Of a stretch of DNA of 64,000 nucleotides, positions 5,157 through 37,946 are shown piece after piece. Position 1 is the stretch's first letter. Each line of letters opens with the position of its first letter. This DNA comes from a virus. A program made the translations under genes and the position numbers. The stretch is taken from the IMG/VR virus record IMGVR_UViG_3300042988_001700, positions 1-64,000 of that record. One strand, given 5' to 3'. A model generated the notes under the pieces. It had not been told where the DNA came from. It did not search any database and saw only the letters and a list, made by a program, of their open reading frames with translations.

Positions 5157-5573
5157 TTACTTGTCCGATGTGCTTTTTTCAGAAATCAAAGGAAACATCC
5201 ATTCCCCGTAAAGAGAGGGAACGCCCTTTTCCTTTTTAAACAAATCGGGACTTATCGGATAAATTTCAACTTCAACTTTTTCGTCAAGATACTTGTCGTT
5301 GTTGTCAATATCAGCCTTAAACTGTTCGACAACGGAATCGTAAATGTCTTTCGGGCGACCGCTTTCGCATCCCATCTCCTTAAGCCGATCCCGAAACGCC
5401 TTAAGATTGACATCTTCCCCCTCGCGAACACTTTTGGCTTCAGGTTCAAGATACCGCTTATTGCGAGACAAACAATAGACGAATTCTCCTGAATACTGGA
5501 CATTCGTATTAAGAGTCCCGACAACGCCACTCGAAGACTGAACTACATCTCTTTTCGATAACGAGATTTTCAT
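5157..5573 (-). CDS. Hypothetical protein, possibly fibre assembly chaperone
   Basis: AGGAGAG RBS; directly downstream of the giant fibre gene. Confidence 0.45.
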   Translation of the reverse strand: MKISLSKRDVVQSSSGVVGTLNTNVQYSGEFVYCLSRNKRYLEPEAKSVREGEDVNLKAFRDRLKEMGCESGRPKDIYDSVVEQFKADIDNNDKYLDEKVEVEIYPISPDLFKKEKGVPSLYGEWMFPLISEKSTSDK

Positions 5574-5660
5574 ACTCTCTCCTTTAATTGTTTAAACGCA
5601 ACACTACTAATATAGTAATAAATTAATTCATGCCTTTCGTTTTATGATAAAAATATCATA

Positions 5661-8600
5661 TCAATTGAAATGAACATTTATAAACGTTAGTGCCCCGTTG
5701 GCAGATCCGTTTGCCTCTGGGTGTCCACACTCTCTCCAGTGCTGAACGGTTGATGGTGTATTTTCTTGTGTTACCCTACCAGAAGTGCTTGTTGATACAG
5801 AGCAAACATACCCCATTGTTAGTGTTAGTCCTGCTTCCGGAAGAGCTTCTGCTCTACCAGAACAGACAATCCAGACAGAGTTTCCGCTTGTTGCGTCAGC
5901 ATAAACAATTCCAATAGGCATATCGGCTGAATTTCCACTGGTCGGGCACTTATAAACCCTTCCACCTGTTCCACCCTGAAGAAAGCAAACAACTTCTCCT
6001 TTTGCGAGATTTTCTCCAGCAGTGTACAATATCGCCCTTCCGCCTTCATCTGTTTCCATCGTTCTTGAACCGATATATACCTTTGGGCTTGTTAATGATA
6101 TTGAAGTTGCATGTGTTATTGTCGCGCAAGTAATCGTTCCGTCAACCTGAAGACCTCCCGCAAGATAACTTTTTGCTGCCCACGCCGAATAAATAGGGTA
6201 TTGATTAGTTACGGTTGCTTCTCCATCGGCAACATTAGGAGACTCAATTTTGATACCGTAACTATTTATTATAGTGCTGGTGGTTGTGTTGTGGTATGGC
6301 CTAAGTCTTATTCCGTATGAATTTGTTGTTGTAGCTGTACTGCCGCCAGGATAGGTGTAGGCGTGACCATGATATATCAACAATCCCGTTAGTGCGTCTA
6401 GCGATCCATTATCATCTGGATACCCCCTTAGTACCACTATTTCGGCACCAGCAAAAGCTCCATTTACTCCATTTGTAACCGTTTTCCCTGACGATATTGA
6501 TATATCAGCTATTATATAAAACGGATTTACATATTTAGTTGTAATATCGTTTGTAAAAACGCCTTTGTTTGATAGGGTTAATCCATACGGGGTATTATTT
6601 GTTGTTTCAGAATCTATGTATGTATAGGATAATAGCCTTAAAGAAGATCCGTTATCAACGATATTGCTATCACCGACAGCACCAGTTGCTCCTGTAGTGT
6701 ATTTAAGTAAATAGTTATCGGTTCCCGTTCCAGAAACACCGCCCATATCAACAATCAATTCAGCCGGGGTTCTAAAATCAATATTGTTAGCCGAATCAAG
6801 CGTTAATATTTTTGAAGCCGTTGTTCCCTCATTAACGGGACTTACATAATTCAATATTCCAGTATAACCTATTTTGAATCTTTCGATAGGCCCACTGTTA
6901 TTATTGTCGGAAGTACAAAAAGAAAAATACGTCGGACGACCACTTCCGCCGAAATCAGCAGCAGCCTTTACGTCGATTCTCGCGCACTCACCAATACCAT
7001 AGGTGCTGGAATCCCTAGACCTAACAACAAAGCTCCCCAAATATTTTGACGACGTTATATCTGTGTCGCCACACTCTAAAACTACTTTTGAATAAGTTCC
7101 CCAATCATTATATACCCATAAGTACGGACCCCTAACCTCAACAGAACCATCGTAATCAATAAACATTGCGAGGTGGTCGGTTTCGCTAAATCCATCGTGA
7201 GTATAAAATTGGTGTCGAGTATAATCGCTGGCAGTAGATGATATTGAATAATAGTTCGCGTTTCTAAAATCAGTATCTTCTATCTCCATTTCAATACCGA
7301 GCCACGAATCGGTTGCAACGTTTCGAACCTCAAACGAATGCGTAGGTGAAGGAGAATTTATCCCAAAACACTTGTTGAATAAAGAAAAATACCCCTCATC
7401 TGTTAATGTTGGGCTTAACAAACTAAATGTTGCCAATGAACTATTGGCAGCCGCCGCACTATGCTCTATGGTGAATGCGCCCCTTCCGTTAGAGGAAGCG
7501 TGCGTTAGTGTTCCAGAAGCATTATGATAAGCATTAAACCCTATGTATCCGAGAGTATCGTTTCCTGTCCCTGGCGATTGATCTATCATTATTTGGTTTC
7601 TTGCAGTAGCGATATTTTGAACTATATGAACTCTAGCAAGAGGAGTAACTGTTCCTATTCCAAAATTTCCACCATTTAACATTGTGGCCAAGGCTTTGTT
7701 ATCTTCTTGATTCATTAAATACCAAGAAGTTGAACCAGAATATGAATAGTTAATTGTCGCACTGGCAAAACCATATTTTATAGTTTCAAAATTAAGAAAA
7801 TAGTTAAGAGCAAGAGAAGTGCTTCCACCAAAAACTTGAAATCTATACGACGGGTCTCCGCACACACCAACATTTCCATTTCCGCGAATTGAAACTATAG
7901 GAGAAGATATTGAAGTTGTGTCCCACAAAGAAACATTTAATTGTGTTTTACCATAATCCGAATCTTCATATTTTTGAAGACCGAAATTTGCCTGCATTCT
8001 CTGGACGGGGTCATTCTCAAATCTCTGAATAATAAATATGTCTTCGTTGGCTAAAAGTTGGTGGGTAGATGGAACCTGTGTGCCATTTACTTGTAATTTT
8101 GCTAATGGAGAAAGAGTATTTATACCAATCCCACTACTTGGGGTTATATACACAAAACTATTTGATACAGAATCAGAACCTATAAATATTCCAGTAGATG
8201 TATTGTCAAGAATATATCCAGCAGATATGGGGACACTTGTTGGCGTTGATCCATCACCAATACCAAAATCAATTGCTCTTCCACCAGACCCCGACGTTCC
8301 AACCCTCAATGCGTTAGATCCTGCGGCTGCGGTATATACTTTTAATATTGCATCAGACGCAGCTACACCTATTCCAACCATCGTTCCGGCTGCGTCGGTG
8401 TATATATTTGAATCGCCTAAAGTAGAAGTTGTTGCAAAACGAGGAATTCTGTATTGAGTTCCAGATAAAGCCCCAGCTCCTCCGATATCAGATAGAATTT
8501 CGGCTCCTGTTCTGTATTTTAATTGACCAGAACTTGAAACTATTATTTTATCAACATCAGTAGTTTCGTGAGCTATTGATCCTAAAGTCAAGTCCCCGGC

Positions 8601-11600
8601 ATTTGTCAAAGACATTGGATATCCTGCAACGGCGCTATTATCTATTGCCGTCGAAGTGATCCAATAGAAGGAATTAGATGTATGACCGAATCCACAATAC
8701 AAATTATCAGATGATTTATCCCAAAGCATTACGCTATCATTGGTATTAAAATACAAAGATTTTAACCATCCTGCTGTTGTCCAAGATGAACTGGAACCTA
8801 AAGATAGCCTTACGTTCGAATCGGGAGTTGCCCCTATTCCAACAAAATTATTTGAATAGATTCCGCCAGCAGCAACTATAGATAATTGTCCTGCATTTGA
8901 TACGCTGAAATCGGAGTAATATGTAGCAGAACCATTATCTACATTATATGTGAGCCTTAAACAATCTCCCGTAGCAGAATTAATCTCTACCTGCTTATCA
9001 GGAGCAGATGTATTAAACCCGAAATATCCGCTTCCAATAAATCTTCCTAAAAGTGTATTATTGTTTGTAAAATCAATAACGGGTTTTGTTGTTGTTATTG
9101 CCGTTATTGTTGTTCCGTTTTGTTTTGATCCTCTGATATTTATTGCAGCCACTGTTTGTCCTAAACCATCAGTTGCACCAAGTATTCCAAATAACATTAC
9201 GGGGTTTCTATCATCTTCTGAAGTGGCCCCCATAATAGTAGCACCACCCTTTGATGTGTCTTGTGTATCTATACTAAAAAAAGCATGTGTGGGCAATACT
9301 GTCGTTATTCCATGTGTTAATCCATCACATGTAAGACTGAACCAATGAGTAGCGTCATCGGATGCCCTTCTGAGTTCTACAAAAGAAACAGGTGTAGGTG
9401 CCCCAATACCAACACGTCCATTGCTACGTATAGAAACAAGCGGAGAAGATATCGAAGTTGTATCCCACAGAGAAATGTTTAATTGAGTTTTTCCATAACT
9501 ACCAGTTTCATATTTTTGAAGACCGAAATTTGCCTGCATTCTCTGGACGGGGTCATTCTCCCATTTCTGCAAAATAAAAATATCTTCATTTGCTATTAAC
9601 TCTTCGTCACTTGTTACTATTGTTCCATTTGCTTGTAATTTTGCTAATGGAGAAAGAGTATTTACACCAATACCAGCGCTCGGGGTTATATATAAATAGC
9701 TATTTGATATAGTTGCCGAACCTATAAATATTCCGGTAGAAGTGTTGTCAAGTATATACCCGGCAGACACTGGAACGCTTGCCGGGGTTGATCCGTCTCC
9801 AATCCCAAAATCAATTGCTCTACCACCAGATCCTGACGTTCCTATTCGTAAAGCGTTGGACCCCGAAGCTGCGGTATACACTTTTAATATCGCGTCAGAT
9901 GCAGCTACACCTATTCCGACCATCGTTCCCGCTGCATCGGTGTATATATTTGAATCTCCCAGCGTACTCGTTGTAGCGAATCTTGGGATTCGGTATTGCG
10001 TTCCAGCTATTGCGCTTGCCGGGGCGATTCCAAGCGTTGATAGCGATTGGTATTTAACGTCTGTTCCATCACTCGAAACAATTGTACCAATAGTTCCCAA
10101 AGCAAGTTTTGTCCACTTTGGTGTTGATCCAATTCCAGCTATTAAATCTCCACGGCTAACAGTTCCACCAGTAGTATCATAATGATATATTGACAGCAAG
10201 TTGTGTGTTGTTGGTTTCCAAGTTTCTGGCGCTGCGTGAACATGGTCTCGCCTTGCAGCGGTTGACGCGCTCCCGGCAAGCGCGGTATCGTTTTCTGTAA
10301 TCGTACTCGGAACAGTAGCGTCAAACAATGCTTTGTATCCAGGCTCAACATCTCCATAGGCAACACCAACATAGTTTATTAATCCAGTTGTTGGAACGCT
10401 AATAGCCATACCAGCCCATGCCGGTGACGCCCCTTGCGCCGTTATCATCATTCCTCTTGCAATTGATATCCCGGCTATAGCGGTAAGGTCTGCGTCGGCG
10501 GCTTGCGCTCCGACATCACTATACGTTAAACCGTGAGCTGCCCATACAATATCAGTTCCATTTGATTTTATAAAATACCCATTAGTACCTAATGCTAACT
10601 TTTTCCACTTTACCGTTTCCTCTTGTGCAGTAATAAGATCACCACGAACGGGAGAACCTGTTATCGTATCTGGGTGAGAACTTGACAACAAATCGTGGTC
10701 TGTTACCGGGGTTGTTCCGTCTGAAGCTATTGTTATTTGACTATCTGTATGAGTTACCGTTACACCGGTGCTTCCAATAATGCTTTTGTATGCCCAAGAG
10801 TTACCGGCTGCATTCACTGCAACAACATTGTTTGAAGATCCTATTCCGGTCAATCCGCCAACAGATAGCGTTCTGTCTTCCGACAATAAGCCACCGCCGG
10901 ATATTGGAGATATAGTATTTAAAGTTATCGGATTCGCGTCTATTCTCGTCCTATAATACGACCCTGTTCCAATATAGGAAAATGAATAATCACTCATTAT
11001 TTCGAACGTATCATTTTCGGCAAGAATCGCGGAAGGACCAAGAACAGCTCTTTTTGCCGTCAAAAAAGACCCGTCAAGAAGATCTGTTGTTCCAAGATTC
11101 TGGAAATATTCTCCTATTTTAATTTGAGAAGTTGGACCCGAACTCGGACTCGCAGATGGACTTGCCGACATGCTGTGCGAAGGACTCGATGATGGTGACG
11201 GAGAAGAAGATGGGCTTGACGATATACTTGCCGATGGAGATTGACTTGGGCTATGCGACGGACTCGCGGATCTACTTGTCGAAGGACTCGAAGACGGGCT
11301 TGAAGATGGAGACGAAGAAACGCTTGTCGATGGGCTACTCGACGGTGACTGTCCAGACGGGCTTGTTGACGGGCTACTTGACGGGCTTGACGAAGGTGAT
11401 GGTGAAGACGACGGGCTTAATGATGGCGACGCGCTGGCGCTTGAAGACAAAGAAGAACTCGGACTAGAAGACGGAGACGGGCTTGACGATGGACTACTGC
11501 TCGGACTTGTGCTTGGACTTGCACTTGGAGATAAAGATGGGCTCGGAGACGACGAAGGGCTATTTGACGCACTAATCGACGGACTTGTTGACGGAGACGC

Positions 11601-13322
11601 GCTCGGGCTTGGAGAAGTCGAAGGGCTACTACTCGGTGACGACGAAGGGCTTAAAGACGGAGAACTACTCGGAGAAGGGCTACTCGAAGGACTACTCGAA
11701 GCACTCGACGATGGCGACGCGCTTGGACTGGAAGATGGCGACGGACTCGAAGACGGACTACTACTCGGGCTTACGCTCGGACTTGTACTTGGCGAAGTAG
11801 AGGGACTACTTGATTGACTTGTCGAAGGACTTTCCGATGGGCTGTTTGATATAGACGAACTTGGAGACGGGCTTGCCGAAGGACTCGATGATGGAGAAGT
11901 AGAAGGGCTACTACTCGCGCTTGTCGAAGGCGACGACGACGGGCTGTTTGACGGTGAAGGCGAAGCAGAAGGACTTGACGACGCGCTGGACGATGGCGAA
12001 ATTGACGGTGAAGCTGACGGCGAAGACCCTCCACCAGAAGGGCTTGTGCTTGGCGACGAAGATGGAGACGCGCTTGCCGAAGAAGACGGCGAACTGCTTG
12101 GTGACGGGCTACTACTTGGACTCGCGCTTGGGCTTACACTTGGACTTGCTGAAGGCGATGCAGATGCGCTGCCAGACGGAGAAGATGATGGTGATGGTGA
12201 TGCCGAAGGACTGCTTGACGCGCTACTTGACGGGCTCGTAGAAGGAGAATTTGACGCGCTCGAAGACGGCGAAGAACTTGGGCTCGGAGAAGACGATGGG
12301 CTTGCGCTTATCGAAGAAGATGGAGAACTGCTCGGTGACGGGCTGCTTGACGGGCTATTGGATGGCGAAGAGGATGGACTACTACTTATTGACGACGATG
12401 GAGAGGCTGATGGTGAAGATGATGGCGAAGGACTACTACTTGGGCTTGTAGACGGAGAATTAGATACGCTCGAAGAAGGCGACGAACTCGGGCTTGGCGA
12501 CGACGAAGGGCTTGCTGATGGAGAATTTGAAGCACTACCAGAAGGACTCGAAGATGGCGACGGGCTACTCGACGAACTTGTTGATGGAGAAGCTGATGGC
12601 GAAGCAGAAGGGCTTGCTGACGGGGAAGCACTAGGGCTTGGCGACGACGACGCGCTTGTTGATGGAGAACTTGAAGTGGAAGATCCACCACCGGCAGTAG
12701 ATTTTATACTTATAATATTACACACCCAATTGCTGTTGGCGTGTGTAACTGCACCATAAATGTTCGCGGCAGTAGCAGAGTATATTTTGTAATATAAAGC
12801 CGTAAGACCATTCGCGAAAATAACAGCGGTTGAAGCATCCCCGCCTATAGTTGGACTTGTCCATGAAGCAGAAGCATACGTTTTGTGGCCAGACAAAACT
12901 ATTTCATCATCACCGGTTGTTGATATGGTAGCTGATTGTTGCGAAGTCCCTGTCCCTGTCGCGGTTCCTTTTTGGTCAACCGTAACAGTTTCTCCAGCAT
13001 CCGGGCGAAATTGTGCGACATACAACCCACAATAAGGTGCTGTTCCCGCCGTTCCGACAAATGTTGCGTTGGCATTCGCAGCAGCGTTTAGGATGTATCC
13101 AAACCTTCCTCTTGACCCTCCGGCGTTAGATGTCTGAGCCTCCATCGTAAAGCTGTTTGACCCACCATCATTAACGGTAGCGTCTGTAACATTGCTATCT
13201 TCGTATGCAAGCCAACACACCAAAACGTCTCCAGCAGCAATATTAAGTGCAGCAGCAGTAGATTGTGGGCTTGCGCTTTGGTCAGATGTCGATTTTGCTC
13301 CAGCAATAAAACTAAACGCCAT
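5661..13322 (-). CDS. Giant tail fibre/adhesin (~2550 aa) with Ser/Pro mucin-like stalk
   Basis: Likely start MAFSF at 13322, overlapping the upstream gene end. N-terminal beta-rich domain, ~515-aa S/P/T tract, repeated G-x-V-G-I-G fibre motifs, and a C-terminal AGENLAKGEVV...PIGIVYADATSG (DUF2190-like) domain. Confidence 0.8.
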   Translation of the reverse strand: MAFSFIAGAKSTSDQSASPQSTAAALNIAAGDVLVCWLAYEDSNVTDATVNDGGSNSFTMEAQTSNAGGSRGRFGYILNAAANANATFVGTAGTAPYCGLYVAQFRPDAGETVTVDQKGTATGTGTSQQSATISTTGDDEIVLSGHKTYASASWTSPTIGGDASTAVIFANGLTALYYKIYSATAANIYGAVTHANSNWVCNIISIKSTAGGGSSTSSSPSTSASSSPSPSASPSASPSASPSASPSTSSSSSPSPSSSPSGSASNSPSASPSSSPSPSSSPSSSVSNSPSTSPSSSPSPSSSPSASPSSSISSSPSSSPSNSPSSSPSPSSSPSSSISASPSSSPSPSSSPSSSASNSPSTSPSSSASSSPSASPSPSSSPSGSASASPSASPSVSPSASPSSSPSPSSSPSSSASASPSSSPSTSPSGGGSSPSASPSISPSSSASSSPSASPSPSNSPSSSPSTSASSSPSTSPSSSPSASPSPSSSISNSPSESPSTSQSSSPSTSPSTSPSVSPSSSPSSSPSPSSSPSASPSSSASSSPSSSPSPSSSPSLSPSSSPSSSPSTSPSPSASPSTSPSISASNSPSSSPSPSLSPSASPSTSPSSSPSSSPSPSSSPSSSLSSSASASPSLSPSSSPSPSSSPSSSPSTSPSGQSPSSSPSTSVSSSPSSSPSSSPSTSRSASPSHSPSQSPSASISSSPSSSPSPSSSPSHSMSASPSASPSSGPTSQIKIGEYFQNLGTTDLLDGSFLTAKRAVLGPSAILAENDTFEIMSDYSFSYIGTGSYYRTRIDANPITLNTISPISGGGLLSEDRTLSVGGLTGIGSSNNVVAVNAAGNSWAYKSIIGSTGVTVTHTDSQITIASDGTTPVTDHDLLSSSHPDTITGSPVRGDLITAQEETVKWKKLALGTNGYFIKSNGTDIVWAAHGLTYSDVGAQAADADLTAIAGISIARGMMITAQGASPAWAGMAISVPTTGLINYVGVAYGDVEPGYKALFDATVPSTITENDTALAGSASTAARRDHVHAAPETWKPTTHNLLSIYHYDTTGGTVSRGDLIAGIGSTPKWTKLALGTIGTIVSSDGTDVKYQSLSTLGIAPASAIAGTQYRIPRFATTSTLGDSNIYTDAAGTMVGIGVAASDAILKVYTAASGSNALRIGTSGSGGRAIDFGIGDGSTPASVPVSAGYILDNTSTGIFIGSATISNSYLYITPSAGIGVNTLSPLAKLQANGTIVTSDEELIANEDIFILQKWENDPVQRMQANFGLQKYETGSYGKTQLNISLWDTTSISSPLVSIRSNGRVGIGAPTPVSFVELRRASDDATHWFSLTCDGLTHGITTVLPTHAFFSIDTQDTSKGGATIMGATSEDDRNPVMLFGILGATDGLGQTVAAINIRGSKQNGTTITAITTTKPVIDFTNNNTLLGRFIGSGYFGFNTSAPDKQVEINSATGDCLRLTYNVDNGSATYYSDFSVSNAGQLSIVAAGGIYSNNFVGIGATPDSNVRLSLGSSSSWTTAGWLKSLYFNTNDSVMLWDKSSDNLYCGFGHTSNSFYWITSTAIDNSAVAGYPMSLTNAGDLTLGSIAHETTDVDKIIVSSSGQLKYRTGAEILSDIGGAGALSGTQYRIPRFATTSTLGDSNIYTDAAGTMVGIGVAASDAILKVYTAAAGSNALRVGTSGSGGRAIDFGIGDGSTPTSVPISAGYILDNTSTGIFIGSDSVSNSFVYITPSSGIGINTLSPLAKLQVNGTQVPSTHQLLANEDIFIIQRFENDPVQRMQANFGLQKYEDSDYGKTQLNVSLWDTTSISSPIVSIRGNGNVGVCGDPSYRFQVFGGSTSLALNYFLNFETIKYGFASATINYSYSGSTSWYLMNQEDNKALATMLNGGNFGIGTVTPLARVHIVQNIATARNQIMIDQSPGTGNDTLGYIGFNAYHNASGTLTHASSNGRGAFTIEHSAAAANSSLATFSLLSPTLTDEGYFSLFNKCFGINSPSPTHSFEVRNVATDSWLGIEMEIEDTDFRNANYYSISSTASDYTRHQFYTHDGFSETDHLAMFIDYDGSVEVRGPYLWVYNDWGTYSKVVLECGDTDITSSKYLGSFVVRSRDSSTYGIGECARIDVKAAADFGGSGRPTYFSFCTSDNNNSGPIERFKIGYTGILNYVSPVNEGTTASKILTLDSANNIDFRTPAELIVDMGGVSGTGTDNYLLKYTTGATGAVGDSNIVDNGSSLRLLSYTYIDSETTNNTPYGLTLSNKGVFTNDITTKYVNPFYIIADISISSGKTVTNGVNGAFAGAEIVVLRGYPDDNGSLDALTGLLIYHGHAYTYPGGSTATTTNSYGIRLRPYHNTTTSTIINSYGIKIESPNVADGEATVTNQYPIYSAWAAKSYLAGGLQVDGTITCATITHATSISLTSPKVYIGSRTMETDEGGRAILYTAGENLAKGEVVCFLQGGTGGRVYKCPTSGNSADMPIGIVYADATSGNSVWIVCSGRAEALPEAGLTLTMGYVCSVSTSTSGRVTQENTPSTVQHWRECGHPEANGSANGALTFINVHFN
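7865..10004 (-). repeat. Internal duplication of a ~200-aa fibre module (copies ~9405-10004 and ~7865-8463)
   Basis: Both copies read GTQYRIPRFATTSTLGDSNIYTDAAGTMVGIGVAASDAILKVYTAA...ENDPVQRMQANFGLQKYE...SLWDTTSISSP. Confidence 0.95.
11139..12683 (-). repeat. Low-complexity Ser/Pro/Thr/Ala coding repeat (SSSPS, SASPS, STSPS units)
   Basis: About 515 codons of almost only S, P, T and A; mixed Ser codons, so not a perfect DNA tandem repeat. Confidence 0.95.
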
Positions 13323-13614
13323 AAGTAGCTCTCCATACAATATCCTCAATTTGAGGAATATCTATTTTAGTCACAGATTTACTGCCAGTATTTATTCTAA
13401 ACGATGGTCTATTTGAAGTTGGAATTGAATACGACAATGTATTTCCTGGGGCAACAGTTCTTTCCAATGTCAGCGGAGATATAAGGTAAATACGCAATGT
13501 TTTACTTCCATTGTTAACAGCAGACACACCCGTCATCTTCATAGTAGAATCATTATACGTTATCGTTATTGTACATAATGGATCAAGGTAATCAACTCTA
13601 GTGATAATTGCCAT
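13312..13614 (-). CDS. Hypothetical beta-rich protein, probably virion-associated
   Basis: 100-aa ORF overlapping the fibre start. Confidence 0.5.
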   Translation of the reverse strand: MAIITRVDYLDPLCTITITYNDSTMKMTGVSAVNNGSKTLRIYLISPLTLERTVAPGNTLSYSIPTSNRPSFRINTGSKSVTKIDIPQIEDIVWRATYGV

Positions 13615-13616
13615 AA

Positions 13617-14327
13617 TTAACTTCTTCTACTTGTTGAATGAAAAAGGCTAAATGGATTGTAATCTATGTCACCGCAAAACTTCCCGTTTGGAAACATATA
13701 CACAAGCGGCCGATATTCGGTCCTATTAACCTTTCCGCTTGCTATATTTCTATCCCACACACCCTGAAAGCAGCGGTCTTCTCCCTGCGGATACGGCTTT
13801 CCTATCAAATCTTCTCGGTACATGCCCATGATATCAATAAAAACGCTTTTCTTCATGACGAATTCGTTTGTGTGTGCGGAAACCTTAACACCTCTGTCTT
13901 TAATTCTTTGCTCCGTCAGACCATATTTCTTAAGATCGCTTATATTTTGAGATAAAACGCCATTTCCATCAAGTATTCCGAATTCTCTACGAAAATTCAT
14001 ACGGTCTTCTTTAAGATTCAAGGCGTCAAATATTGCTTCTTTTGGGATAATGTAATCGATATCAGCCATAAGCAAATATTCTCCAGATGCAGCAATGGCA
14101 CCCTTGTTTCTTGCTGGTGCCCAAGTCCATGGTCTTTTGTCGTGAGTTTCAATTATCTTAAAATTTTTCAATTCCGGAAGACAAACTGATAGTAACGCCG
14201 GGTCGCTGCCATCGTCAACGAATATTATCTCTACGTTGTCGGGTAGATTCATTGCTTTATAATGGAGGATCTGTCTATAGACAATTTCATGGCTATTAAG
14301 AACTGGTATTACTATTGAAAGTTTCAC
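13617..14327 (-). CDS. Glycosyltransferase, GT-A fold (GT2 with GT7C-like C-terminus)
   Basis: LSIVIPVLN, IIFVDDGS, ARNKG, DID (DxD), GMYREDL...QGEDRCF. GTG start overlaps the upstream TGA. Confidence 0.85.
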   Translation of the reverse strand: MKLSIVIPVLNSHEIVYRQILHYKAMNLPDNVEIIFVDDGSDPALLSVCLPELKNFKIIETHDKRPWTWAPARNKGAIAASGEYLLMADIDYIIPKEAIFDALNLKEDRMNFRREFGILDGNGVLSQNISDLKKYGLTEQRIKDRGVKVSAHTNEFVMKKSVFIDIMGMYREDLIGKPYPQGEDRCFQGVWDRNIASGKVNRTEYRPLVYMFPNGKFCGDIDYNPFSLFHSTSRRS

Positions 14328-14911
14328 GGTTTTACCCAAAACGCTGTTGGCATTGCTTCTCTTGTACAATACCAAGGATTAATCATGTTACAATGTGTAT
14401 AGCTATCGACCGCCTGAACGACACCAGACCTGAAGAAATGGAAATAATCGTGCGCTGCTACAATTCCTCCGGAACGAACCTTTTTAGACCAGCAGATTAT
14501 ATCCATTGCCGCATGGTCAAAGGTATGGTCACCGTCGATATAAACGAAGTCAAGAGACTCGTCTTCGAATAATTTAACAGCATCCATTGAGAACATTCTC
14601 ATGAATTTAACATTGTGCCCAAGCGTATTTTCTTGGGCTAAAGCAAAATTTCGGTCTTGAGCTTCCAAAGTAACCCTTTTATTGAATGCGCACCAAGGAT
14701 CGACGCACGTCAATTCAATGTTGGGATTTTTTTCACAAAGAACCTTTGCAAACAATCCTCTTTGTGTTCCAACTTCTACTCCTTTATTGAGGCCTATTTC
14801 ACCGAATAACTCAGCAAGATTGTTTCTGTCTCCGCGCGGAGGGCTCCACGGAAGATTGTCTTTTGAACTACGGAATTTAAACTTCCTACAAATTTCTTCA
14901 TGCGTTGTCAT
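14324..14911 (-). CDS. Class I SAM-dependent methyltransferase (Methyltransf_24-like, probable sugar O-methyltransferase)
   Basis: GVEVGTQRG, CVDPW, LDFVYIDGDH, GGIVAAHDY motifs. Confidence 0.85.
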   Translation of the reverse strand: MTTHEEICRKFKFRSSKDNLPWSPPRGDRNNLAELFGEIGLNKGVEVGTQRGLFAKVLCEKNPNIELTCVDPWCAFNKRVTLEAQDRNFALAQENTLGHNVKFMRMFSMDAVKLFEDESLDFVYIDGDHTFDHAAMDIICWSKKVRSGGIVAAHDYFHFFRSGVVQAVDSYTHCNMINPWYCTREAMPTAFWVKP

Positions 14912-15605
14912 AAACTTTTACAATCTCCTTTGCTTTTCCCCAATAAGGTATGTCGTATGCTTTAATTTGTCCATGTTTCTTCCATTTTGTTTTTTGCCTG
15001 TCATCTGTTCCATTCACATGATTAAGTTGAACTATAGCGTTCGTGCAATACCATTCAACCATATTCCGCCGCGATACCCCAAGATTGTTTTCGACCATCT
15101 TGCGGCCAACTTCGCCAACCAAATCATCGCGGCCAAACCCAAAAGGCCATTTCGATTCTCTTTCTTCAAGTGCATCTATAAGATACTCTCTTGGAGCTAT
15201 AAGCGAACAATTACTTATTCTATTTCTTAGGCAGTATATTGGATTGGATTCCCAAGCGAATAGAGACCACCTTGACCTATCGTAACTAACTTCGTCATTT
15301 TTTGGTCTAAATTCTTTAAAATGCTCTGTGGTATAAAGAACGTCGTCTTCGGCTGTCGCAATATATTTGGTTTTTGCCAATTTTGCGCCAATCAATAATT
15401 GGTGATAAATATTCCAATAGCTTTTTTGATTGCTGTCCAAGACATACTCTGTGTCTGAAAATGGAAAAACAAAAGAAGAGTTGCGCGTTATGCAAATAGT
15501 TGGCGTTTTTTCTCCAACAGCTGCTTTTAAATATGACAATTGGAAGTCAATCCATTTTAGCGGCATTTCATTTGCAGTGATATATATGACTGTTATGTCG
15601 TCCAT
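14898..15605 (-). CDS. Putative glycosyltransferase (GT-A fold)
   Basis: ITVIYIT N-terminal strand, KYIATAEDDVLY (EDD motif); lies between GT and MTase genes. Confidence 0.65.
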   Translation of the reverse strand: MDDITVIYITANEMPLKWIDFQLSYLKAAVGEKTPTICITRNSSFVFPFSDTEYVLDSNQKSYWNIYHQLLIGAKLAKTKYIATAEDDVLYTTEHFKEFRPKNDEVSYDRSRWSLFAWESNPIYCLRNRISNCSLIAPREYLIDALEERESKWPFGFGRDDLVGEVGRKMVENNLGVSRRNMVEWYCTNAIVQLNHVNGTDDRQKTKWKKHGQIKAYDIPYWGKAKEIVKVYDNA

Positions 15606-16519
15606 TGATACCCCTCCCACCCTGGCACCGGACCAAACTTCTCTACAAGCCACCGCAATGGCCTATGGGCCTTGTTCCACATTCCGCGTATCCAAAGGTC
15701 TTTTGATCTTTGTCGTGCTATTTTGACCTGTTTGTCGTCCAATGGGTAGGGGAATCCAAAGTCTCCTCCCTGTGTCCTGAATAAATGAGAGTACCAAGTC
15801 TTTTTATTAACCAATTGCTGGCCTCCAGACAACCACGACTTGCATGAAATCTCGGTTCCCATTTGACCCCACGAACCATGTTCTTCGTCAAGCCCACCAA
15901 GATCCCAGAATCTTTTACGGTGCATCATCCAGCAAGCGCCAAGATTCCCCATAACAGGAGCAATATCTTTGTTGCTTTCTTCTCGCTTTTCGTAGTCTTT
16001 CCAATACTGAAAATGGAGATCCGAATCAAATCTCATAAAATCAGAACGCCTATTCAGTCTTGGCTTCCATACCATTTCTCTACTAAAAGTTCCATTTAAC
16101 AAACATTTTGGGCATATCGTCGGAGTAGGACCTTGGTATATTCTTGTTCCACAAGAACTGCATACCCAATCAAAAACGTGCAAATTATATAGTCTTGGGA
16201 CAATGGTACTGTCATAATCACATTCTGAAGTTAATTTTACGTCGAAGCCTTCATCTACAGAACAATGAGCGTCAAGTTTCATTACGAATTTTGATCGAGA
16301 AACTGAAATTCCAATATTTGTAGCCGCACGTTGTCCGACCGATTCGGAAAAATGGAGCATCGTTATTTTTGGATCGTCTTCTATTGGCGTTATTGGCCAG
16401 CATCCATCACAAACTACTATTATTTCCGTATCTCCACGCATGTTTTCAAGAATAGACTTAACGGTTTCACCGAGAAACATCTCGTTTCTACTTGGTATTA
16501 CAACCGACAAATTGTGCAT
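15593..16519 (-). CDS. Glycosyltransferase resembling polypeptide N-acetylgalactosaminyltransferase (GT27-like catalytic domain, no lectin domain)
   Basis: SVVIPSRNE; KLDAHC (DxH motif); GACWMMHRKRFWDLGGLDEEHGSWGQMGTEISCKSWLSGG...YSHLFR parallels the Gal/GalNAc-T motif; CxxC...CxxC insertion. Confidence 0.75.
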   Translation of the reverse strand: MHNLSVVIPSRNEMFLGETVKSILENMRGDTEIIVVCDGCWPITPIEDDPKITMLHFSESVGQRAATNIGISVSRSKFVMKLDAHCSVDEGFDVKLTSECDYDSTIVPRLYNLHVFDWVCSSCGTRIYQGPTPTICPKCLLNGTFSREMVWKPRLNRRSDFMRFDSDLHFQYWKDYEKREESNKDIAPVMGNLGACWMMHRKRFWDLGGLDEEHGSWGQMGTEISCKSWLSGGQQLVNKKTWYSHLFRTQGGDFGFPYPLDDKQVKIARQRSKDLWIRGMWNKAHRPLRWLVEKFGPVPGWEGYQWTT

Positions 16520-16848
16520 TAAACAAGCTCCCTTAGCGCCTCAAGATTTGCTACTCCGGCAGGAACAAGAAATTGAATGGGGTCACTTATCGATTTAACC
16601 ACTCCATCACCAGCCCGGATCTTTATATCAAGAACGTCTGGTTCGTCGTTATATGTTCTTTTCCCATCCCTTATCGCCTGTGTTTTCTTATCAACAAGCC
16701 TTGAATCGTTTCCTTCTGCTACAGTCCCCGCCGTTGTACCAAAAATAGCTGATGCGCTTAATTGCTGGCCAACAATAGTTAAATCAACGCTTGAAGTATC
16801 TACGACCGTAACCGGTTTATGATCGTGAGAAGGATATCTTTTAATCAT
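16519..16848 (-). CDS. Hypothetical virion-associated protein
   Basis: GTTAGTVAEGNDSRL is a tail-fibre-like motif; coupled to neighbours. Confidence 0.5.
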   Translation of the reverse strand: MIKRYPSHDHKPVTVVDTSSVDLTIVGQQLSASAIFGTTAGTVAEGNDSRLVDKKTQAIRDGKRTYNDEPDVLDIKIRAGDGVVKSISDPIQFLVPAGVANLEALRELV

Positions 16849-17171
16849 AGGCTCAACATTCCACTTATTCTGATATTAACGAGTGCTCCAGTTGAATAGC
16901 CGTATATTGTCCCGGCAGACTCAAGTATCTGCCAGGTCCCATACTCAATGTGTTCTGATGGTTCTATAACAAAATCATATAAGAAAAAGTTAGTTATTGA
17001 TGCCGATTCTCCAGGAATAACAAAATTCAAGAATACATGCGCATTAACAGCACCACGATTAACCATTGAAATTTGTTTTATTTCAGCTATTTGTCCGGGC
17101 GGGATAGTCTTCAAAAGGAGACTTGAAACCCCAAGCGTTCCTTGATAAAACATTTTTGGCGTTAGTGGCAT
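16845..17171 (-). CDS. Small beta-sandwich tail-associated protein
   Basis: 108 aa, beta-rich, in the structural operon. Confidence 0.5.
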   Translation of the reverse strand: MPLTPKMFYQGTLGVSSLLLKTIPPGQIAEIKQISMVNRGAVNAHVFLNFVIPGESASITNFFLYDFVIEPSEHIEYGTWQILESAGTIYGYSTGALVNIRISGMLSL

Positions 17172-17409: not shown

Positions 17410-18888
17410 TTAAAACCTCGGGAAAACGATGTTTCCATTTTCGTCTTTTGCGTTGTTGTAATAATACTCCAATGCTTTTGCGCTTATTGCTGAATTTATT
17501 GCAATAATATCAAAAAAATTAGAATTCCCAGTAGGTGTAATTAAAATTATTCCAGACGCGGTTACATTGCTTGCATACCCAAGCGTCCAAGCTCCTTGTG
17601 GGTAATGGATTTGTTCGCTATATTGTGTTATTACTACAGGAACTCCACCGATAGACAGAGAAAATACACCCTGATACCATAGCATTATGGTTCCTGAAGA
17701 CAATGAAACGCTCCCAATATTTTGTGGAATATCAAACGAAATTGCAGAATTGGCTATTTGGTCTGGGCCATACACGTTCCTGTAATACGTTGACAATGAT
17801 ATTGGAATTCCAGTAGCGAGGTTAACTATTTGCTCCCTGTAATCGCCAACTCTCAGCAATGGAATAGAAAACTCTTCTTGGTAATTATCGTGATTCATTA
17901 ACATTTCTGTTGGGTCTGCCGGAGTATCCTGCGAGACGTAGTGTTGCGCTCTTCCCATAATTCTAAAACCAGACATGTTTGCGGTTATTTTTGCCTGAAG
18001 CCTATTACCTTCTGCTTTTTTGTCAAACGATATCATGTGTTTTGGCAAAACAATATCTGTTGCGGATACTTTTACTGTCTCCGGTTCTCCGTCCGCAAGC
18101 ATCGAAACATCAATCGATAACCCATCTGGATATCCGTTGTCATCAAAACCTGTTACATCTCTATTTTCTTCTTTTATTGGCCTTGTATAAAAATAGTTCT
18201 GTAATGCACGCAAGAAAAAGTCTTCTTCCCCGCCAATGTCTTCACCGTACAACACTTCTGGAATTATTTCCGTTCCCCCAGTGTTGTCGGTCCCAACTTT
18301 ATCTTTCCATACCTTTGTAAGGCCGCTTCCATCTGGACCGTCAAACGTAGCTATGTCATACAACATCCCATCCTTACAATCAAGTACCAATAAATGCGGA
18401 TAAAAAGAGTCGTCGTAAATAGAAAGAACACCGCAACGAGCCTCTGGTGTTGGCCAAGAATCTCCAGAGCATTCTGAAAACCCAAGCCCTTGATCAGTAG
18501 TAAACCCAAACCTATAACATCTGTTTGTCTTTGAAACGTCTCTTCCTGTTGATCCCGTGTCCCACCCATATACGGTTATATAATCTTCTTTTACCTCGAT
18601 TTCCGAATTTCCATCCTCGTCGGTGACTGTGTGGCTTACGGTATACACTCCCGGCATAGAATAAACATGTGAAGGATTTTCTTCGGTTGAATACTCTCCG
18701 TCACCAAAAGCCCAAAGATGCGTATACGTTCTCGTTCTTTCCGAAAACACAATGTTAAAAGAATAATATGCCCAAGAAACATGGGTCCTGTCGTCAAACG
18801 AAATTCCAGCAACTGGAACAGGGAGCAATTGCCCCCTGAACGACGAATTTAACGCCTTCCTTCGTTTTTCTTCAGTATCAATAGCCAT
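17410..18888 (-). CDS. Tail protein with C-terminal half of a PKD domain near its N-terminus
   Basis: LWAFGDGEYSTEENPSHVYSMPGVYTVSHTVTDEDG...DYITV matches the PKD signature. Confidence 0.7.
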   Translation of the reverse strand: MAIDTEEKRRKALNSSFRGQLLPVPVAGISFDDRTHVSWAYYSFNIVFSERTRTYTHLWAFGDGEYSTEENPSHVYSMPGVYTVSHTVTDEDGNSEIEVKEDYITVYGWDTGSTGRDVSKTNRCYRFGFTTDQGLGFSECSGDSWPTPEARCGVLSIYDDSFYPHLLVLDCKDGMLYDIATFDGPDGSGLTKVWKDKVGTDNTGGTEIIPEVLYGEDIGGEEDFFLRALQNYFYTRPIKEENRDVTGFDDNGYPDGLSIDVSMLADGEPETVKVSATDIVLPKHMISFDKKAEGNRLQAKITANMSGFRIMGRAQHYVSQDTPADPTEMLMNHDNYQEEFSIPLLRVGDYREQIVNLATGIPISLSTYYRNVYGPDQIANSAISFDIPQNIGSVSLSSGTIMLWYQGVFSLSIGGVPVVITQYSEQIHYPQGAWTLGYASNVTASGIILITPTGNSNFFDIIAINSAISAKALEYYYNNAKDENGNIVFPRF

Positions 18889-25006: not shown

Positions 25007-26377
25007 TTACGAAATGGTCACAATCGGAGCTCGGCTGATAGGAATCAGGCACGAACCCTTCTGAATCTGGGTTGTACTTGCACCATCACCACGGGACGCT
25101 GCATCCTTATCGAACGACGGGATCTGAATCCCGGCACCCAAATAGGCACCACGACCCTGAATCTGGCCGTATTCCGTCGATTCGGAAAGGTTAGTTACCA
25201 GCGGGTCAACAAGGTACTCGGCAAGAGCATTTGCGCCAAGAGCGGCACACATGTCAAACACATAGTTTGTTGCACCGGAAGTATTAGCCCACGCTGAATT
25301 GTTACGGTCATCGTTGTTGCCGGGGTTGACATACCCAACTTTAAGGGTATACGAACCAGCAGAACCGCCAACCGTAAGAGTTGGCATACGAGCGTCTGTA
25401 ACGAAAACAAGCTGCTCAAGCACGCGACCAATCTCGCCAATAAGTTTCGGGCGATCCGGATCTTTGTACTCTGCAACACCCTTGAAATACTCGCCAAGGC
25501 TTCCGGCTTTACCGGGATTCATTGCCCAACCAAGAACACGCGGGGGAATAAGAATGATGTAACTCGGAATACCATCAAGCATAACCGGCTCCATAACAAG
25601 CTGGTCAGTCAGATAATATTTGATCTGCATCATCGTATCAACATTCATAAGCGCCTTGGGTGCCGAACCAGTACCGGAGGCTGCCAGCAACGCAGTGGCA
25701 ATATTAAGCACAAACGTCGAAGATCCGGAATAGGTGCGGCTGGAATAATATCCATCGGTATCAGCGGCACCATTGGTTTTAGTAAGATCGGTAATATCAT
25801 ACGCTGGGTACGAAGATTCTACCAAGTTAGGAATAATCCAGTTCTTATTAAACTGCTGCTTATTGCTGACGGGTGCATTCGTAAGACCCTCGTCATAAGT
25901 AAGCATAAGAGCCTGGTGAATGTGCGTATCACGAAGTTCTGCCATGTACTCTGACAACGCCGGGCCATAAGTTTCGATGTACTTCAGGTAGGCGGTATCG
26001 TTGTAGTCGTATCCCCACTTTTTGTACTTAACGCTTTTCTTGATTTCGTTGTAGAACAACTCCGTCCAAACAAGATCCTGTTCATCTTCGTTGCCAAGCA
26101 TTGCGTTTTCATTGCCGTACTGCGGGGCCTTTTTCAGGGGAGTACGCATCGCAATACGACAGGACTGGCCGGAATCCGGGGCGTTCGTTACCTCCATCCA
26201 AATACCGGCTTTTACGACATTGATAATTCCATCAATGACCTGAATTGCAGTTTTAAGCTGCGTGAAGACGGACGGTCGAATACTGTTCTCGCGAAGACGC
26301 TTCTCGTAACCAATCCGGCGAATTGCGGTTGCATTCATACCGGAAAGGGTGGTCGGTGTACCTGGAACATAAGCCAT
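25007..26377 (-). CDS. Major capsid protein (N4-gp56-like)
   Basis: Follows portal and scaffold, strong RBS (AGAGGAG), followed by a terminator; GQSCRIAMRTPL...MLGNEDEQ segment is typical of this family. Confidence 0.75.
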   Translation of the reverse strand: MAYVPGTPTTLSGMNATAIRRIGYEKRLRENSIRPSVFTQLKTAIQVIDGIINVVKAGIWMEVTNAPDSGQSCRIAMRTPLKKAPQYGNENAMLGNEDEQDLVWTELFYNEIKKSVKYKKWGYDYNDTAYLKYIETYGPALSEYMAELRDTHIHQALMLTYDEGLTNAPVSNKQQFNKNWIIPNLVESSYPAYDITDLTKTNGAADTDGYYSSRTYSGSSTFVLNIATALLAASGTGSAPKALMNVDTMMQIKYYLTDQLVMEPVMLDGIPSYIILIPPRVLGWAMNPGKAGSLGEYFKGVAEYKDPDRPKLIGEIGRVLEQLVFVTDARMPTLTVGGSAGSYTLKVGYVNPGNNDDRNNSAWANTSGATNYVFDMCAALGANALAEYLVDPLVTNLSESTEYGQIQGRGAYLGAGIQIPSFDKDAASRGDGASTTQIQKGSCLIPISRAPIVTIS

Positions 26378-30530: not shown

Positions 30531-32009
30531 CTATTGAATTTGTATGTTATTGAAGATACACGATATTGTGTCATTCTCGGATTTCGCATTATTGAGAATG
30601 CTTAAGAATTCGTTGTCTTGCATCAAATTTTTGAACAGAATGCTTTGCTGCGCCGGAAGAGAGTCGATGAATCTTCTCCTGTATTTTCCAAGGTGAATAC
30701 CATGTTCTGACCACAAGTTAACCTGTGAATTCTGTATTTGAAGACCACTTTTCAAAACAATTCTAAGCAACATCTCTTCGTCGTAGGTTTTTGATATCTC
30801 TTGTGTTTCTGATAATACATTTAATTCTTCTCTTCTTGCATCTTGCGTCGCTTCCCACCAGTCTTTTGTTATAAAATGGACCCCGATCATTCGATTGTCT
30901 ATCACGTAATTGTTATAGCACTTAAGACCAAATTTATTCATACAGTCTACGTGCTGCTCGACAAACCCCGGCTCCTCACGCATAAAAAGAATGTCGATAT
31001 CGGTTAAAAGAGCATAATCATACTTCTCAAGGCAGTCGGAACTGTAATATAGGAAGCGCACTGCTGGTGCCTTATCATTATTCATTCCGGATATGTCGAA
31101 TGTCTTAACATCGTATTCTGGGTATGCCTTTTTGGCACAATATTCAAACATTTTGACATAACTTTTCATTTTTTCATCATAGAAAGCAGCTATACATACC
31201 TTTTTTGCCATCTGTTTTTCTGGATATATGTCTTTAAGCATAATTTTATACCGTTCTTGCTTACTCGGAATGCGCCAGTCGGGGTGACTTGTGCAAAAAC
31301 CTTTTGGAATCCTATGCTTTTTTAAATATTCTTCATAAAAAAACCCTGTGTTTTCATTACGACACCCCTCGAAGTCATCAGAAATGCAATTGGTATCAAT
31401 ATGTGACCCCTCAAGTGTTCCAGTGTGCTGTATGAAAGATGGCGAACACACAAGTATAGGAATATTTGATTTTCCGACAAGTTCACAAACCGAATAATCC
31501 CATCCATTCCTTGATTTTATTTGTGCAATAGAAGGAACGATTATCTTTTCCCAGATATTTCTTGATATTAGCATCCCAAGACCACCAAGAATATGCTTAA
31601 AATTCAATCCAAGATAATATGATTTAACAGAAGGGTATGTTTGTAGATTGCACAATCCAATTAGGTTAGAAGATATGTCGATTGAAGATATAATGTTATT
31701 TGTATTACTCCACCACCACGGCCTGAACTCACAATCGGAGTCTATCACAACGACAGAACTGGCACCAAATTCAGAAAACGCTCTCGATATTGCGTTTATG
31801 TTGTTTAAATCAACACCAAGGTGCGATTCGCCTTCAACGAATACCGATTCTGGTATCCTGCTTGTTATCTTTTTAACGAGAACGACATCGTTAGAGCAAT
31901 CGTCAAAAACAATCAACCGCTCTGGTCTTGGACTGGATTTAAGATAGCTATCTATGGTCTTTTCGAGAAGCACTTCGCGATTGTGTGTGGTCATTATCGC
32001 TATATTCAA
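30531..32009 (-). CDS. Two-domain glycosyltransferase (GT2 plus a second GT-A-like domain)
   Basis: VFDDCS, VIDSD, FIQHTG in domain 1; RFL...LLTDIDIL and DEEML in domain 2. Confidence 0.75.
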   Translation of the reverse strand: MNIAIMTTHNREVLLEKTIDSYLKSSPRPERLIVFDDCSNDVVLVKKITSRIPESVFVEGESHLGVDLNNINAISRAFSEFGASSVVVIDSDCEFRPWWWSNTNNIISSIDISSNLIGLCNLQTYPSVKSYYLGLNFKHILGGLGMLISRNIWEKIIVPSIAQIKSRNGWDYSVCELVGKSNIPILVCSPSFIQHTGTLEGSHIDTNCISDDFEGCRNENTGFFYEEYLKKHRIPKGFCTSHPDWRIPSKQERYKIMLKDIYPEKQMAKKVCIAAFYDEKMKSYVKMFEYCAKKAYPEYDVKTFDISGMNNDKAPAVRFLYYSSDCLEKYDYALLTDIDILFMREEPGFVEQHVDCMNKFGLKCYNNYVIDNRMIGVHFITKDWWEATQDARREELNVLSETQEISKTYDEEMLLRIVLKSGLQIQNSQVNLWSEHGIHLGKYRRRFIDSLPAQQSILFKNLMQDNEFLSILNNAKSENDTISCIFNNIQIQ

Positions 32010-35017: not shown

Positions 35018-35018
35018 T

Positions 35019-36166: not shown

Positions 36167-36426
36167 TTTTTAATCTTCTTTTGGTGAACAAGTTTTACTT
36201 TTGCAACAAATTTAGAATTTTTCTTCTCTTGTTTTATGAACATACGTTCGCTATAATTAGGTTTTCCGTATGTAATAACAATCTGATTCTTTCCTCTCTT
36301 TGTTGCCCGTATTCTTTGCTTTGGATTTTCTATCGGGTAACAAAACACAGTAGCGCTTCGTATTCCCGGAATCATAACAGCCTCTATTGCCTCTATAAAA
36401 TCTTTTCTTGAAAACGAATGAAACAT
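36163..36426 (-). CDS. Small basic hypothetical protein
   Basis: AGGGGAAG RBS; ATGA coupling to the E1-alpha gene. Confidence 0.55.
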   Translation of the reverse strand: MFHSFSRKDFIEAIEAVMIPGIRSATVFCYPIENPKQRIRATKRGKNQIVITYGKPNYSERMFIKQEKKNSKFVAKVKLVHQKKIKK

Positions 36427-36438
36427 ACTTCCCCTTTA

Positions 36439-37945: not shown

Positions 37946-37946
37946 A

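Follow-up and report, generated by a model that had tools for sequence, protein, structure and literature searches.

The phage studied here belongs to an uncultured virus from a freshwater metagenome, and its genome is complete (98.5 kb, with direct terminal repeats). The window, by which we mean the whole stretch of 64,000 nucleotides that was analysed (positions 1 to 64,000 of IMG/VR record IMGVR_UViG_3300042988_001700), contains within the late (structural) operon an accessory module of 11.7 kb, at approximately 5157-16848 on the minus strand, with the following demonstrated gene anatomy. The upstream edge is a 109-aa ORF (16519..16848, minus strand, like all features below), followed by genes for a GT27-like GT-A glycosyltransferase (GT) of 308 aa (15593..16519), a second GT-A glycosyltransferase (14898..15605; 235 aa, counted from its ATG at 15605), a class I SAM-dependent methyltransferase (14324..14911) and a GT2-family GT-A glycosyltransferase of 252 aa from a TTG (13617..14375). 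A 100-aa ORF with no family and no relatives in related loci (13312..13614) lies between these enzymes and a giant fibre-like protein (5661..13349; 2,562 aa from a TTG, with a probable ATG at 13322), and a 138-aa ORF (5157..5573) forms the downstream edge. The stops and starts of the cassette genes upstream of the fibre overlap, in an operon-like manner, and the fibre gene is flanked by conserved structural-module genes on the same strand, inside the late structural operon. The three GT-A enzymes and the methyltransferase that the original prediction had placed upstream of the fibre are all there. Cassette proteins match GT-A or methyltransferase families only, and a hydropathy scan revealed no TM-like segment in any of them; judged from their sequences, these enzymes are soluble. 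Among sequencing runs, full-length copies of the phage occur in its probable source sample, a freshwater metagenome, and no RNA run containing phage sequence is listed among those runs.

The fibre reading frame is uninterrupted and specifies a 212-aa N-terminal domain, a Ser/Pro tract of 535 aa (residues 213-747, encoded at 11109..12713) and a C-terminal part of 1,815 aa. A fibre with a Ser/Pro stalk of about 515 residues had been predicted; the tract exists, at 535 residues, but the C-terminal part had been overlooked. This part contains an internal duplication, in which aa 1108-1373 resemble aa 1622-1891 with 67.5% identity. The tract is Thr-poor, with 319 Ser (60%), 114 Pro (21%), 35 Ala and 19 Thr (3.6%). 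Since the autocorrelation of Ser is positive at every even lag, the tract has a Ser-X register, and this (Ser-X)n tract is the candidate O-glycan acceptor. All six Ser codons are in use, and Tandem Repeats Finder detected nothing in the tract DNA beyond micro-arrays of 2-3 copies, indicating that the repeat is maintained at the protein level. An origin of the tract as a DNA-repeat artefact was ruled out by this codon scrambling together with the lack of a DNA tandem repeat. The 98.5-kb genome encodes no long (Ser-X)n protein other than the fibre.

We searched the fibre for a signal peptide or a TM segment and found neither. Compared with Pfam and PHROGs, whole and in pieces, it gave nothing above noise (best phrog_23837, E 3.7e-4), and tblastn against 50,697 GenBank phage records returned no match for either its N-terminal domain or its C-terminal part. 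With no virion-family match above noise, the fibre is putatively assigned to the virion from the position of its gene, its size and its architecture. In a protein atlas, the N-terminal domain of the fibre and the second GT were placed only in unnamed viral clusters.

By sequence and by predicted structure, the product of ORF 15593-16519 is a clear relative of the GT27 polypeptide GalNAc-transferases (ppGalNAc-Ts). The best PDB sequences found by phmmer were GalNAc-T10, T9 and T2 (E 1.7e-6). A family profile of 39 sequences matched GalNAc-T1 at E 2e-20 along nearly its full length (profile positions 4-274), and its 16 best matches were all GT27, whereas other GT2 enzymes were matched by the N-terminal half only, at around 1e-9. 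When the AF2 model of the enzyme (pLDDT 94.2) was compared with the PDB using Foldseek, the approximately 50 best matches were all ppGalNAc-Ts (E about 4e-17, TM 0.6-0.69). The best matches in sequence and structure are therefore of the predicted kind, and not glycan- or DNA-acting GTs; identity to the eukaryotic GT27 enzymes is approximately 18-22%.

In mouse GalNAc-T1, Asp209, His211 and His344 are functionally important (PMC4202792). This Mn2+ triad aligns to D83, H85 and H245 of the phage enzyme, and among the 39 family members D83 and H85 never vary and conservation of H245 is at least 90%. The motifs that had been claimed for this ORF, namely the DxH within LDAHC, FWDLGGLDE, GSWG, EISCKSWLSGG and SHLFR, were all found in its sequence. 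The Gal/GalNAc-T-like motif of the phage enzyme, WGQMGTEISCKSWLSGG, aligns with WGGENLEISFRIWQCGG of GT27 with replacement of the GEN triplet, and its residues E223, K227, W229 and G232 are at least 90% conserved in the family. Together, these comparisons demonstrate the family and fold of the enzyme and the conservation of its metal triad. Between the two motif regions, at aa ~118-147, the protein carries a CxxC...CxxC Zn-ribbon insert; it ends at 308 aa without a lectin domain and has no hydrophobic segment (maximum 19-residue hydropathy 0.63) and no membrane anchor. A tblastn search with the enzyme found no match in the 50,697 GenBank phage records. The family is large (more than 2,800 matches at 90% clustering; 262 clusters at 50% identity, E ≤1e-30), and identity of the enzyme across loci is 45-86%.

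The second GT belongs to no Pfam family and has an E86-x-D88 that is invariant. Many relatives in other phages carry it joined to the C-terminus of the GT27-like domain, as a single protein of approximately 535-570 aa, and these natural fusions suggest that the first two GTs work together. The methyltransferase (Methyltransf_24, with a weak match to TylF sugar-O-methyltransferase) recurs together with the GT27-like gene, in 32 of the 43 viral loci. The GT2 gene, which 8 of the 43 related loci contain, has an alternative GTG start at 14327 that overlaps the methyltransferase stop.

Both statistically and in evolution, the GT27-like gene is coupled to long tracts. A tract of at least 100 aa of (S/T-X)n type is found in 25 of the 26 viral GT loci of at least 15 kb, in agreement with the predicted linkage between homologues of the enzyme and Ser-rich proteins, and in 25 of the 33 genome loci of at least 15 kb. 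Every tract ORF (87/87) is on the strand of the GT27-like gene, and in 63 of 71 loci a tract ORF lies downstream; the remaining neighbour genes are not common to the loci. For the converse scan we used 96 viral records chosen by DNA pattern, with pattern-matching loci that lack a tract as controls. Long tract and GT were both present in 11 records, 7 had the tract only, 1 the GT only and 77 neither (Fisher p 4e-9, uncorrected for relatedness of the records). The 7 records with a long tract only are all fragments, 13-59% complete, and among records at least 90% complete the corresponding counts were 4, 0, 0 and 17 (p 1.7e-4, likewise uncorrected for relatedness).

A sister phage (G504), whose genome is complete, provides a natural experiment. 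Its MCP is 78% and its portal approximately 65% identical to those of the phage studied here, and the genes flanking the module are conserved, but 5160-16875 of the window is missing en bloc, including both edge ORFs. We looked for a GT27-like gene and a tract in the sister genome and neither was present: fibre and cassette are absent together. Outside the tract, the tract-bearing proteins have no detectable similarity to one another, and jackhmmer comparison of their N-terminal domains revealed no shared family. Given the 45-86% identity of the enzyme, this means that the same enzyme pairs with many unrelated heads. Among the heads seen in other phages are a GDSL esterase bearing a CE2_N domain and a domain rich in glycine, presumably of the kinds found on phage fibres. 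Many tract proteins start with 'MA(I/V)...' and have the tract near residue 210, a resemblance that is unexplained.

The GT27-like family also occurs sporadically in genomes of Patescibacteria, again adjoining tract genes. There the pair lies in chromosomes of approximately 0.8-1.1 Mb and is preceded by sugar genes of UDP-HexNAc type, a carbamoyltransferase gene and genes for TylF-type methyltransferases; no phage hallmark gene was found up to 8 kb away on either side. The sugar genes beside these cellular homologues are the only hint on the donor sugar. A further sample of 400 Patescibacteria genomes yielded only 6 with the GT27-like gene; it is therefore accessory in this group and does not identify the host of the phage. 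The host is prokaryotic; searches with the portal protein gave no match in a sample of 401 Patescibacteria genomes or in 5 GT-carrying genomes, a result that is uninformative on host.

Three known systems invite comparison. With GT27 enzymes (e.g. PDB 1XHB, 2FFU, 2D7I) the phage enzyme shares the GT-A catalytic domain, the metal triad of DxH plus a distal His and the WG..E.S.K.W..GG...H.FR motif, and a dense Ser/Pro-rich tract is its likely acceptor. Unlike them, it has no ricin-type lectin domain, membrane anchor or secretory pathway and is predicted to be cytoplasmic and soluble; it carries the Zn-ribbon insert, and its relatives are often fused to a second GT-A instead of a lectin. The candidate acceptor is a Thr-poor (Ser-X)n tract and not a Pro/Thr/Ser mucin domain. 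The 'mucin' label of the original prediction therefore calls for qualification, with regard both to the acceptor and to the missing lectin domain and membrane anchor of the enzyme.

By analogy, the style of the repeat appears to have more in common with the serine-rich-repeat glycoproteins (SRRPs) of bacteria than with mucin. The SRRPs of Gram-positive bacteria (Fap1, GspB, PsrP, SraP) have a long Ser-X stalk that carries a binding domain and is served by dedicated GTs, soluble and cytoplasmic, encoded beside the substrate gene; an initiating GT-B pair, GtfA/GtfB, is followed by several GT-A enzymes that extend the glycan, and export and attachment involve accessory SecA2/SecY2, a signal peptide and an LPXTG anchor. 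The phage resembles them in its alternating Ser-X tract (535 aa, 60% Ser), in having genes for GTs predicted to be soluble and cytoplasmic adjoining the candidate substrate gene, and in having several GT-A enzymes, which would lengthen the glycan. It differs in that it has no GtfA/GtfB-type pair, accessory Sec, signal peptide or LPXTG anchor, its candidate initiating enzyme is GT27-like, and the system is phage-borne. Mycobacteriophages Che8, Corndog and Myrna, according to the statement in PMC12619734 that cites Freeman et al. 2023, use phage GTs, and in some cases methyltransferases, to modify their own structural proteins, with glycans at the C-termini of capsid and tail-tube subunits. The phage studied here also carries GTs and a methyltransferase among its structural genes; relative to the sites named in that statement, its candidate site differs in being a fibre repeat tract of several hundred residues.

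We propose that the module combines a substrate gene with the genes of the enzymes that modify the substrate. In the explanation that we favour, and consider probable, the cassette glycosylates the (Ser-X)n tract of a virion fibre to give a glycan brush. In the scheme that follows we infer the glycosylation itself, which sugar is used, in what order the enzymes act, that the fibre is on the virion, and its biological role. The GT27-like enzyme, using its DxH...H Mn2+ site, would start O-glycosylation on tract serines in the cytoplasm of the infected cell, the first sugar probably being a HexNAc from a UDP-sugar. The adjacent GT-A enzyme and the GT2 enzyme would lengthen the glycan, and the methyltransferase would O-methylate it. 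The product would be an extended, protease-resistant brush on the particle fibre, holding the 212-aa N-terminal domain apart from the 1,815-aa C-terminal part. A search of the literature found no report of a glycan, glycopeptide or activity for any member of the GT27-like family, nor any account in which a GT27-like enzyme from a phage or a prokaryote is paired with proteins of the serine-repeat kind.

The tract could be glycosylated by the cassette and yet serve elsewhere, as the stalk of an adhesin on the infected or lysogenised cell, the module being an 'auxiliary' one for the host surface. The GT-plus-tract pairs in Patescibacteria chromosomes, near sugar-nucleotide genes and away from phage hallmarks, are in line with this, as is the lack of a match between the fibre and any virion family. 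Further, phages of ultra-small bacteria have surface-modification and lectin genes that were read as aids to host adhesion (preprint 10.1101/2025.02.25.640227). We nevertheless consider a host-surface role unlikely: the fibre gene lies on the same strand as the conserved structural-module genes on either side of it, within the late structural operon, the fibre has neither signal peptide nor membrane segment, nothing pointing to an integrase or to lysogeny was noticed in the window, and the GDSL esterase/CE2_N and glycine-rich heads of tract proteins are presumably of phage-fibre kinds.

It is likewise improbable that the tract is an unmodified flexible linker while the GTs have some other target, such as glycans of the host envelope, a lipid-linked oligosaccharide or a different virion protein. 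Polyserine linkers do occur in some secreted glycoside hydrolases, phage GT2 enzymes are usually annotated as O-antigen conversion (ORF 13617-14375 is phrog_841, so labelled) and PHROGs calls the methyltransferase family 'DNA methyltransferase'. But such a linker leaves unexplained both the joint gain and loss of the GT27-like gene and long tracts and the fact that the closest solved relatives of the enzyme are all peptide-acting, and the cassette enzymes, being soluble by prediction, have none of the membrane segments seen in lipid-carrier enzymes of GtrB type. That the tract receives another modification (e.g. phosphorylation) or is fast-evolving low-complexity filler, linked to the enzyme only by shared ancestry of a mobile block, seems to us very improbable. 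The block does move as a unit, and the co-occurrence counts are phylogenetically uncorrected; against this, the tract proteins are unrelated outside the tract while the enzyme remains 45-86% identical across loci, and the codon scrambling indicates selection on the protein sequence.

To our knowledge, mucin-type O-glycosylation has been treated as a eukaryotic invention, and we know of phage virion glycosylation from a few mycobacteriophages only. Here, a large GT27-like family is linked to stalks of serine repeats that occur on many unrelated proteins of phages and Patescibacteria. Given the kinship of one cassette enzyme with the animal enzymes that start mucin glycosylation, the fibre is probably sugar-coated. 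If glycosylation of the tracts is real, sugar-coated fibres would be borne by many environmental phages, which would affect adsorption, resistance to proteases and grazing, and the contacts of particles with surfaces. GalNAc-T-like enzymes that are small and soluble, have no lectin domain and accept a simple repeat would, if this is true, be useful in glycoengineering, and the family would help in asking about the origin of the eukaryotic GalNAc-Ts. It is possible, although we put this forward tentatively and with some doubt, that the GT27-like enzyme and the (Ser-X)n 'glyco-stalk' form a mobile, self-contained protein O-glycosylation system, common to environmental phages and ultra-small prokaryotes and attachable to many unrelated heads, and that the enzyme family is a prokaryotic/viral sister group, and perhaps even the origin, of the eukaryotic mucin-type initiating enzymes.

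Finally, a second sugar-tailoring cluster is found at 30.5-39 kb. It places glycan chemistry elsewhere in the phage as well, and we counted it against the explanation that we favour.

The viral record is complete, with 98,488 bp and direct terminal repeats of 127 bp, and the window covers its first 64 kb. Almost all of its genes lie on the minus strand, and the presence of a P22-type portal (window 27970-30180), a major head protein (25007-26377) and a large terminase of 1,381 aa (42177-46322, minus strand) identifies it as a tailed phage. The public sequencing runs holding the full-length sequence are freshwater metagenomes only, probably from the source sample. Terminase matches fall in separated stretches of the terminase ORF and unrelated PHROGs are matched in between, which suggests, as judged from sequence, inserted elements such as inteins.

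The fibre ORF (5661-13349, minus strand) is a single unbroken frame of 2,562 aa, with the ATG at 13322 as its probable start. A 212-aa N-terminal domain is followed by the serine tract (aa 213-747, window 11109-12713) and by 1,815 more residues, which contain a duplication (aa 1108-1373 and 1622-1891, 67.5% identity). The tract comprises 319 Ser, 114 Pro, 35 Ala and 19 Thr, and its Ser autocorrelation is about +0.5 at all even lags and about -0.5 at all odd lags, showing that serine locally occupies every second position. Since all six Ser codons are heavily used and Tandem Repeats Finder detects only micro-arrays of 2-3 copies, the repeat is maintained at the protein level. The fibre tract is the only long tract of its kind in the whole genome.

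In the direction of transcription the cassette genes precede the fibre, with overlaps between stop and start codons. From a 109-aa ORF at the upstream end they run, all on the minus strand, through the GT27-like enzyme (15593-16519), a 235-aa protein (14898-15605), a Methyltransf_24 methyltransferase (14324-14911), a GT2 enzyme (13617-14375) and a 100-aa ORF (13312-13614) adjoining the fibre; no cassette protein has membrane-like segments. The 235-aa protein matched no Pfam, PHROG or NCBIfam family. Predicted together with 14 homologues it adopts a GT-A fold (pLDDT 89), with the WrtF fucosyltransferase and SpsA as best matches and an invariant E86-x-D88 at the position of the DxD motif. The three GT-A enzymes and one methyltransferase that the original prediction placed upstream of the fibre are thus correct. 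In 5 related loci the 235-aa protein forms the C-terminal part of a fusion with the GT27-like domain, which explains the abundant enzyme forms of ~535 aa.

Pfam recognises only the N-terminal half of the GT27-like enzyme, as Glycos_transf_2, and a single-sequence search of all PDB sequences places GalNAc-T10, T9 and T2 on top. A family profile built from 39 members aligns with GalNAc-T1 over positions 4-274 (E 2e-20); its 16 best matches are all GT27, whereas ordinary GT2 enzymes align over the first ~90 residues only, at about 1e-9. When the AlphaFold model (pLDDT 94.2, pTM 0.92) is compared with the PDB by Foldseek, the ~50 top matches are exclusively polypeptide GalNAc-transferases, as expected from the GalNAc-transferase relationship originally proposed for this ORF. 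Asp209, His211 and His344 are important residues of mouse GalNAc-T1 (PMC4202792). Counted along the alignment, their counterparts are D83 and H85, invariant in the family, and H245, nearly so. The enzyme differs from GT27 in its sequence identity of only about 20%, in lacking the lectin domain and the anchor, and in carrying a CxxC...CxxC insert at aa ~118-147, which a minority of relatives lack. The family is a large one: 2,893 matches are counted after clustering at 90%, and those with E ≤1e-30 form 262 clusters at 50% identity. Among catalogued viral proteins (BFVD) there is just one close structural relative, and our search of GenBank phage records found none.

The enzyme and the tract occur together in other viruses. 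Of the 26 viral enzyme loci spanning 15 kb or more, 25 encode a (S/T-X)n stretch ≥100 aa long, and viral tract ORFs lie on the strand of the enzyme in every case (43/43). Typical sequences are SPSASVSPSASV, SPSLSPSVSPS and SPSESPSAS, and the globular parts of the tract-bearing proteins are mutually unrelated (for example, a GDSL esterase with a CE2_N domain, or a glycine-rich domain). The 43 viral loci also carry the methyltransferase (32/43), the second GT-A (26/43) and the GT2 (8/43), and no further window gene recurs in them. For the converse test we used a degenerate DNA pattern for SPSxSxSPS... to screen the viral collection, sorted 120 loci by true tract presence and searched the enzyme profile against 96 whole records. 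The enzyme was found in 12 records, all of them with a tract. Tracts ≥100 aa long were present in 11 records with the enzyme and in 7 without, these 7 being fragments (13-59% complete); the remaining 78 contained one enzyme, whose 66-aa tract lies in an ORF truncated by the locus end. The association (Fisher p 4e-9), in counts that ignore relatedness, bears out the anticipated linkage of enzyme homologues to Ser-rich phage proteins, and restricting the table to records of at least 90% completeness gives 4/0/0/17 (p 1.7e-4, likewise ignoring relatedness). Many tract proteins (L177, L189, L220, L229, L231, L234, L235, L244, L030 and the fibre, with its N-domain at window 12714-13322) begin with 'MA(I/V)(A/S)...' and enter the tract at residue ~205-230; jackhmmer detects no sequence similarity among their ~210-aa N-domains, which may have a common fold.

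The closest complete relative found, the sister phage G504 (87,553 bp, terminal repeats), shares 78% identity in the major head protein and about 65% in the portal. Window 5160-16875 is wholly absent from it. Synteny is kept on both flanks, and the site is occupied by small unrelated ORFs spanning about 4 kb; a GT27-like gene and (Ser-X)n tracts are both missing from G504. By this comparison of sequences, fibre and enzymes are one module, gained or lost together.

Enzyme relatives among 185,579 species genomes come mostly from Patescibacteria MAGs (Woesebacteria, Levybacteria, WWE3, Saccharibacteria, Paceibacterota and others), with some from DPANN archaea and from various other bins whose taxon labels may be unreliable; five enzyme-carrying genomes checked measure 0.8-1.1 Mb. 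The enzyme is sporadic in Patescibacteria (6 of 400 further sampled genomes). Every genome locus with a long tract (39/39) has a tract ORF downstream of the enzyme and in the same orientation. The upstream genes in CP066693.1, a complete Woesebacteria chromosome, encode a Polysacc_synt_2 dehydratase and two epimerase-family enzymes (one of the UDP-GlcNAc 2-epimerase family, the other an NAD-dependent epimerase/dehydratase), together with a carbamoyltransferase and four methyltransferases, and a second chromosome carries a TylF-type methyltransferase. These cellular neighbourhoods hint at HexNAc-derived, methylated glycans and show that the system extends beyond phages. In some Patescibacteria chromosomes, such as CP066693.1 (L233, 10436-14231) and L236 (11719-16495), the tract gene appears split into 2-3 successive ORFs that differ in frame and all begin within the repeat, which could reflect assembly frameshifts or real breaks in the repeat. 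The same module is found in OZ246401.1 (L231) and other ~0.9-Mb TPA records named 'uncultured Gammaproteobacteria', labels that look unreliable.

We favour, as the probable reading, a substrate-plus-enzymes module for putative cytoplasmic O-glycosylation of a serine-repeat stalk located on the virion, in which a homologue of mucin-type GalNAc-transferases would be the initiating enzyme. The proposed acceptor is nearer to bacterial serine-rich-repeat glycoproteins than to Thr/Pro-rich mucins. That the same putative chemistry serves a host-surface adhesin instead seems unlikely, and we give equally little weight to the tract being a simple linker while the enzymes act on something else; other readings account for what is left. 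Our full-text literature search found no description of a GT27-like enzyme paired with serine-repeat proteins.

Between portal and terminase lies a second sugar-related cluster (30531-39035, minus strand), with a GT2 enzyme, three radical-SAM enzymes (one B12-binding, one SPASM) and minimal thiamine-dependent E1 alpha/beta subunits, which may tailor sugars used on the fibre. Past the window end, a single ORF of 5,858 aa (genome 80255-97828, minus strand) shares only a ~340-aa stretch with G504. Finally, a 492-aa PKD-domain protein (17410-18888, minus strand), 58% identical in G504, is encoded ~0.6 kb beyond the upstream end of the module.
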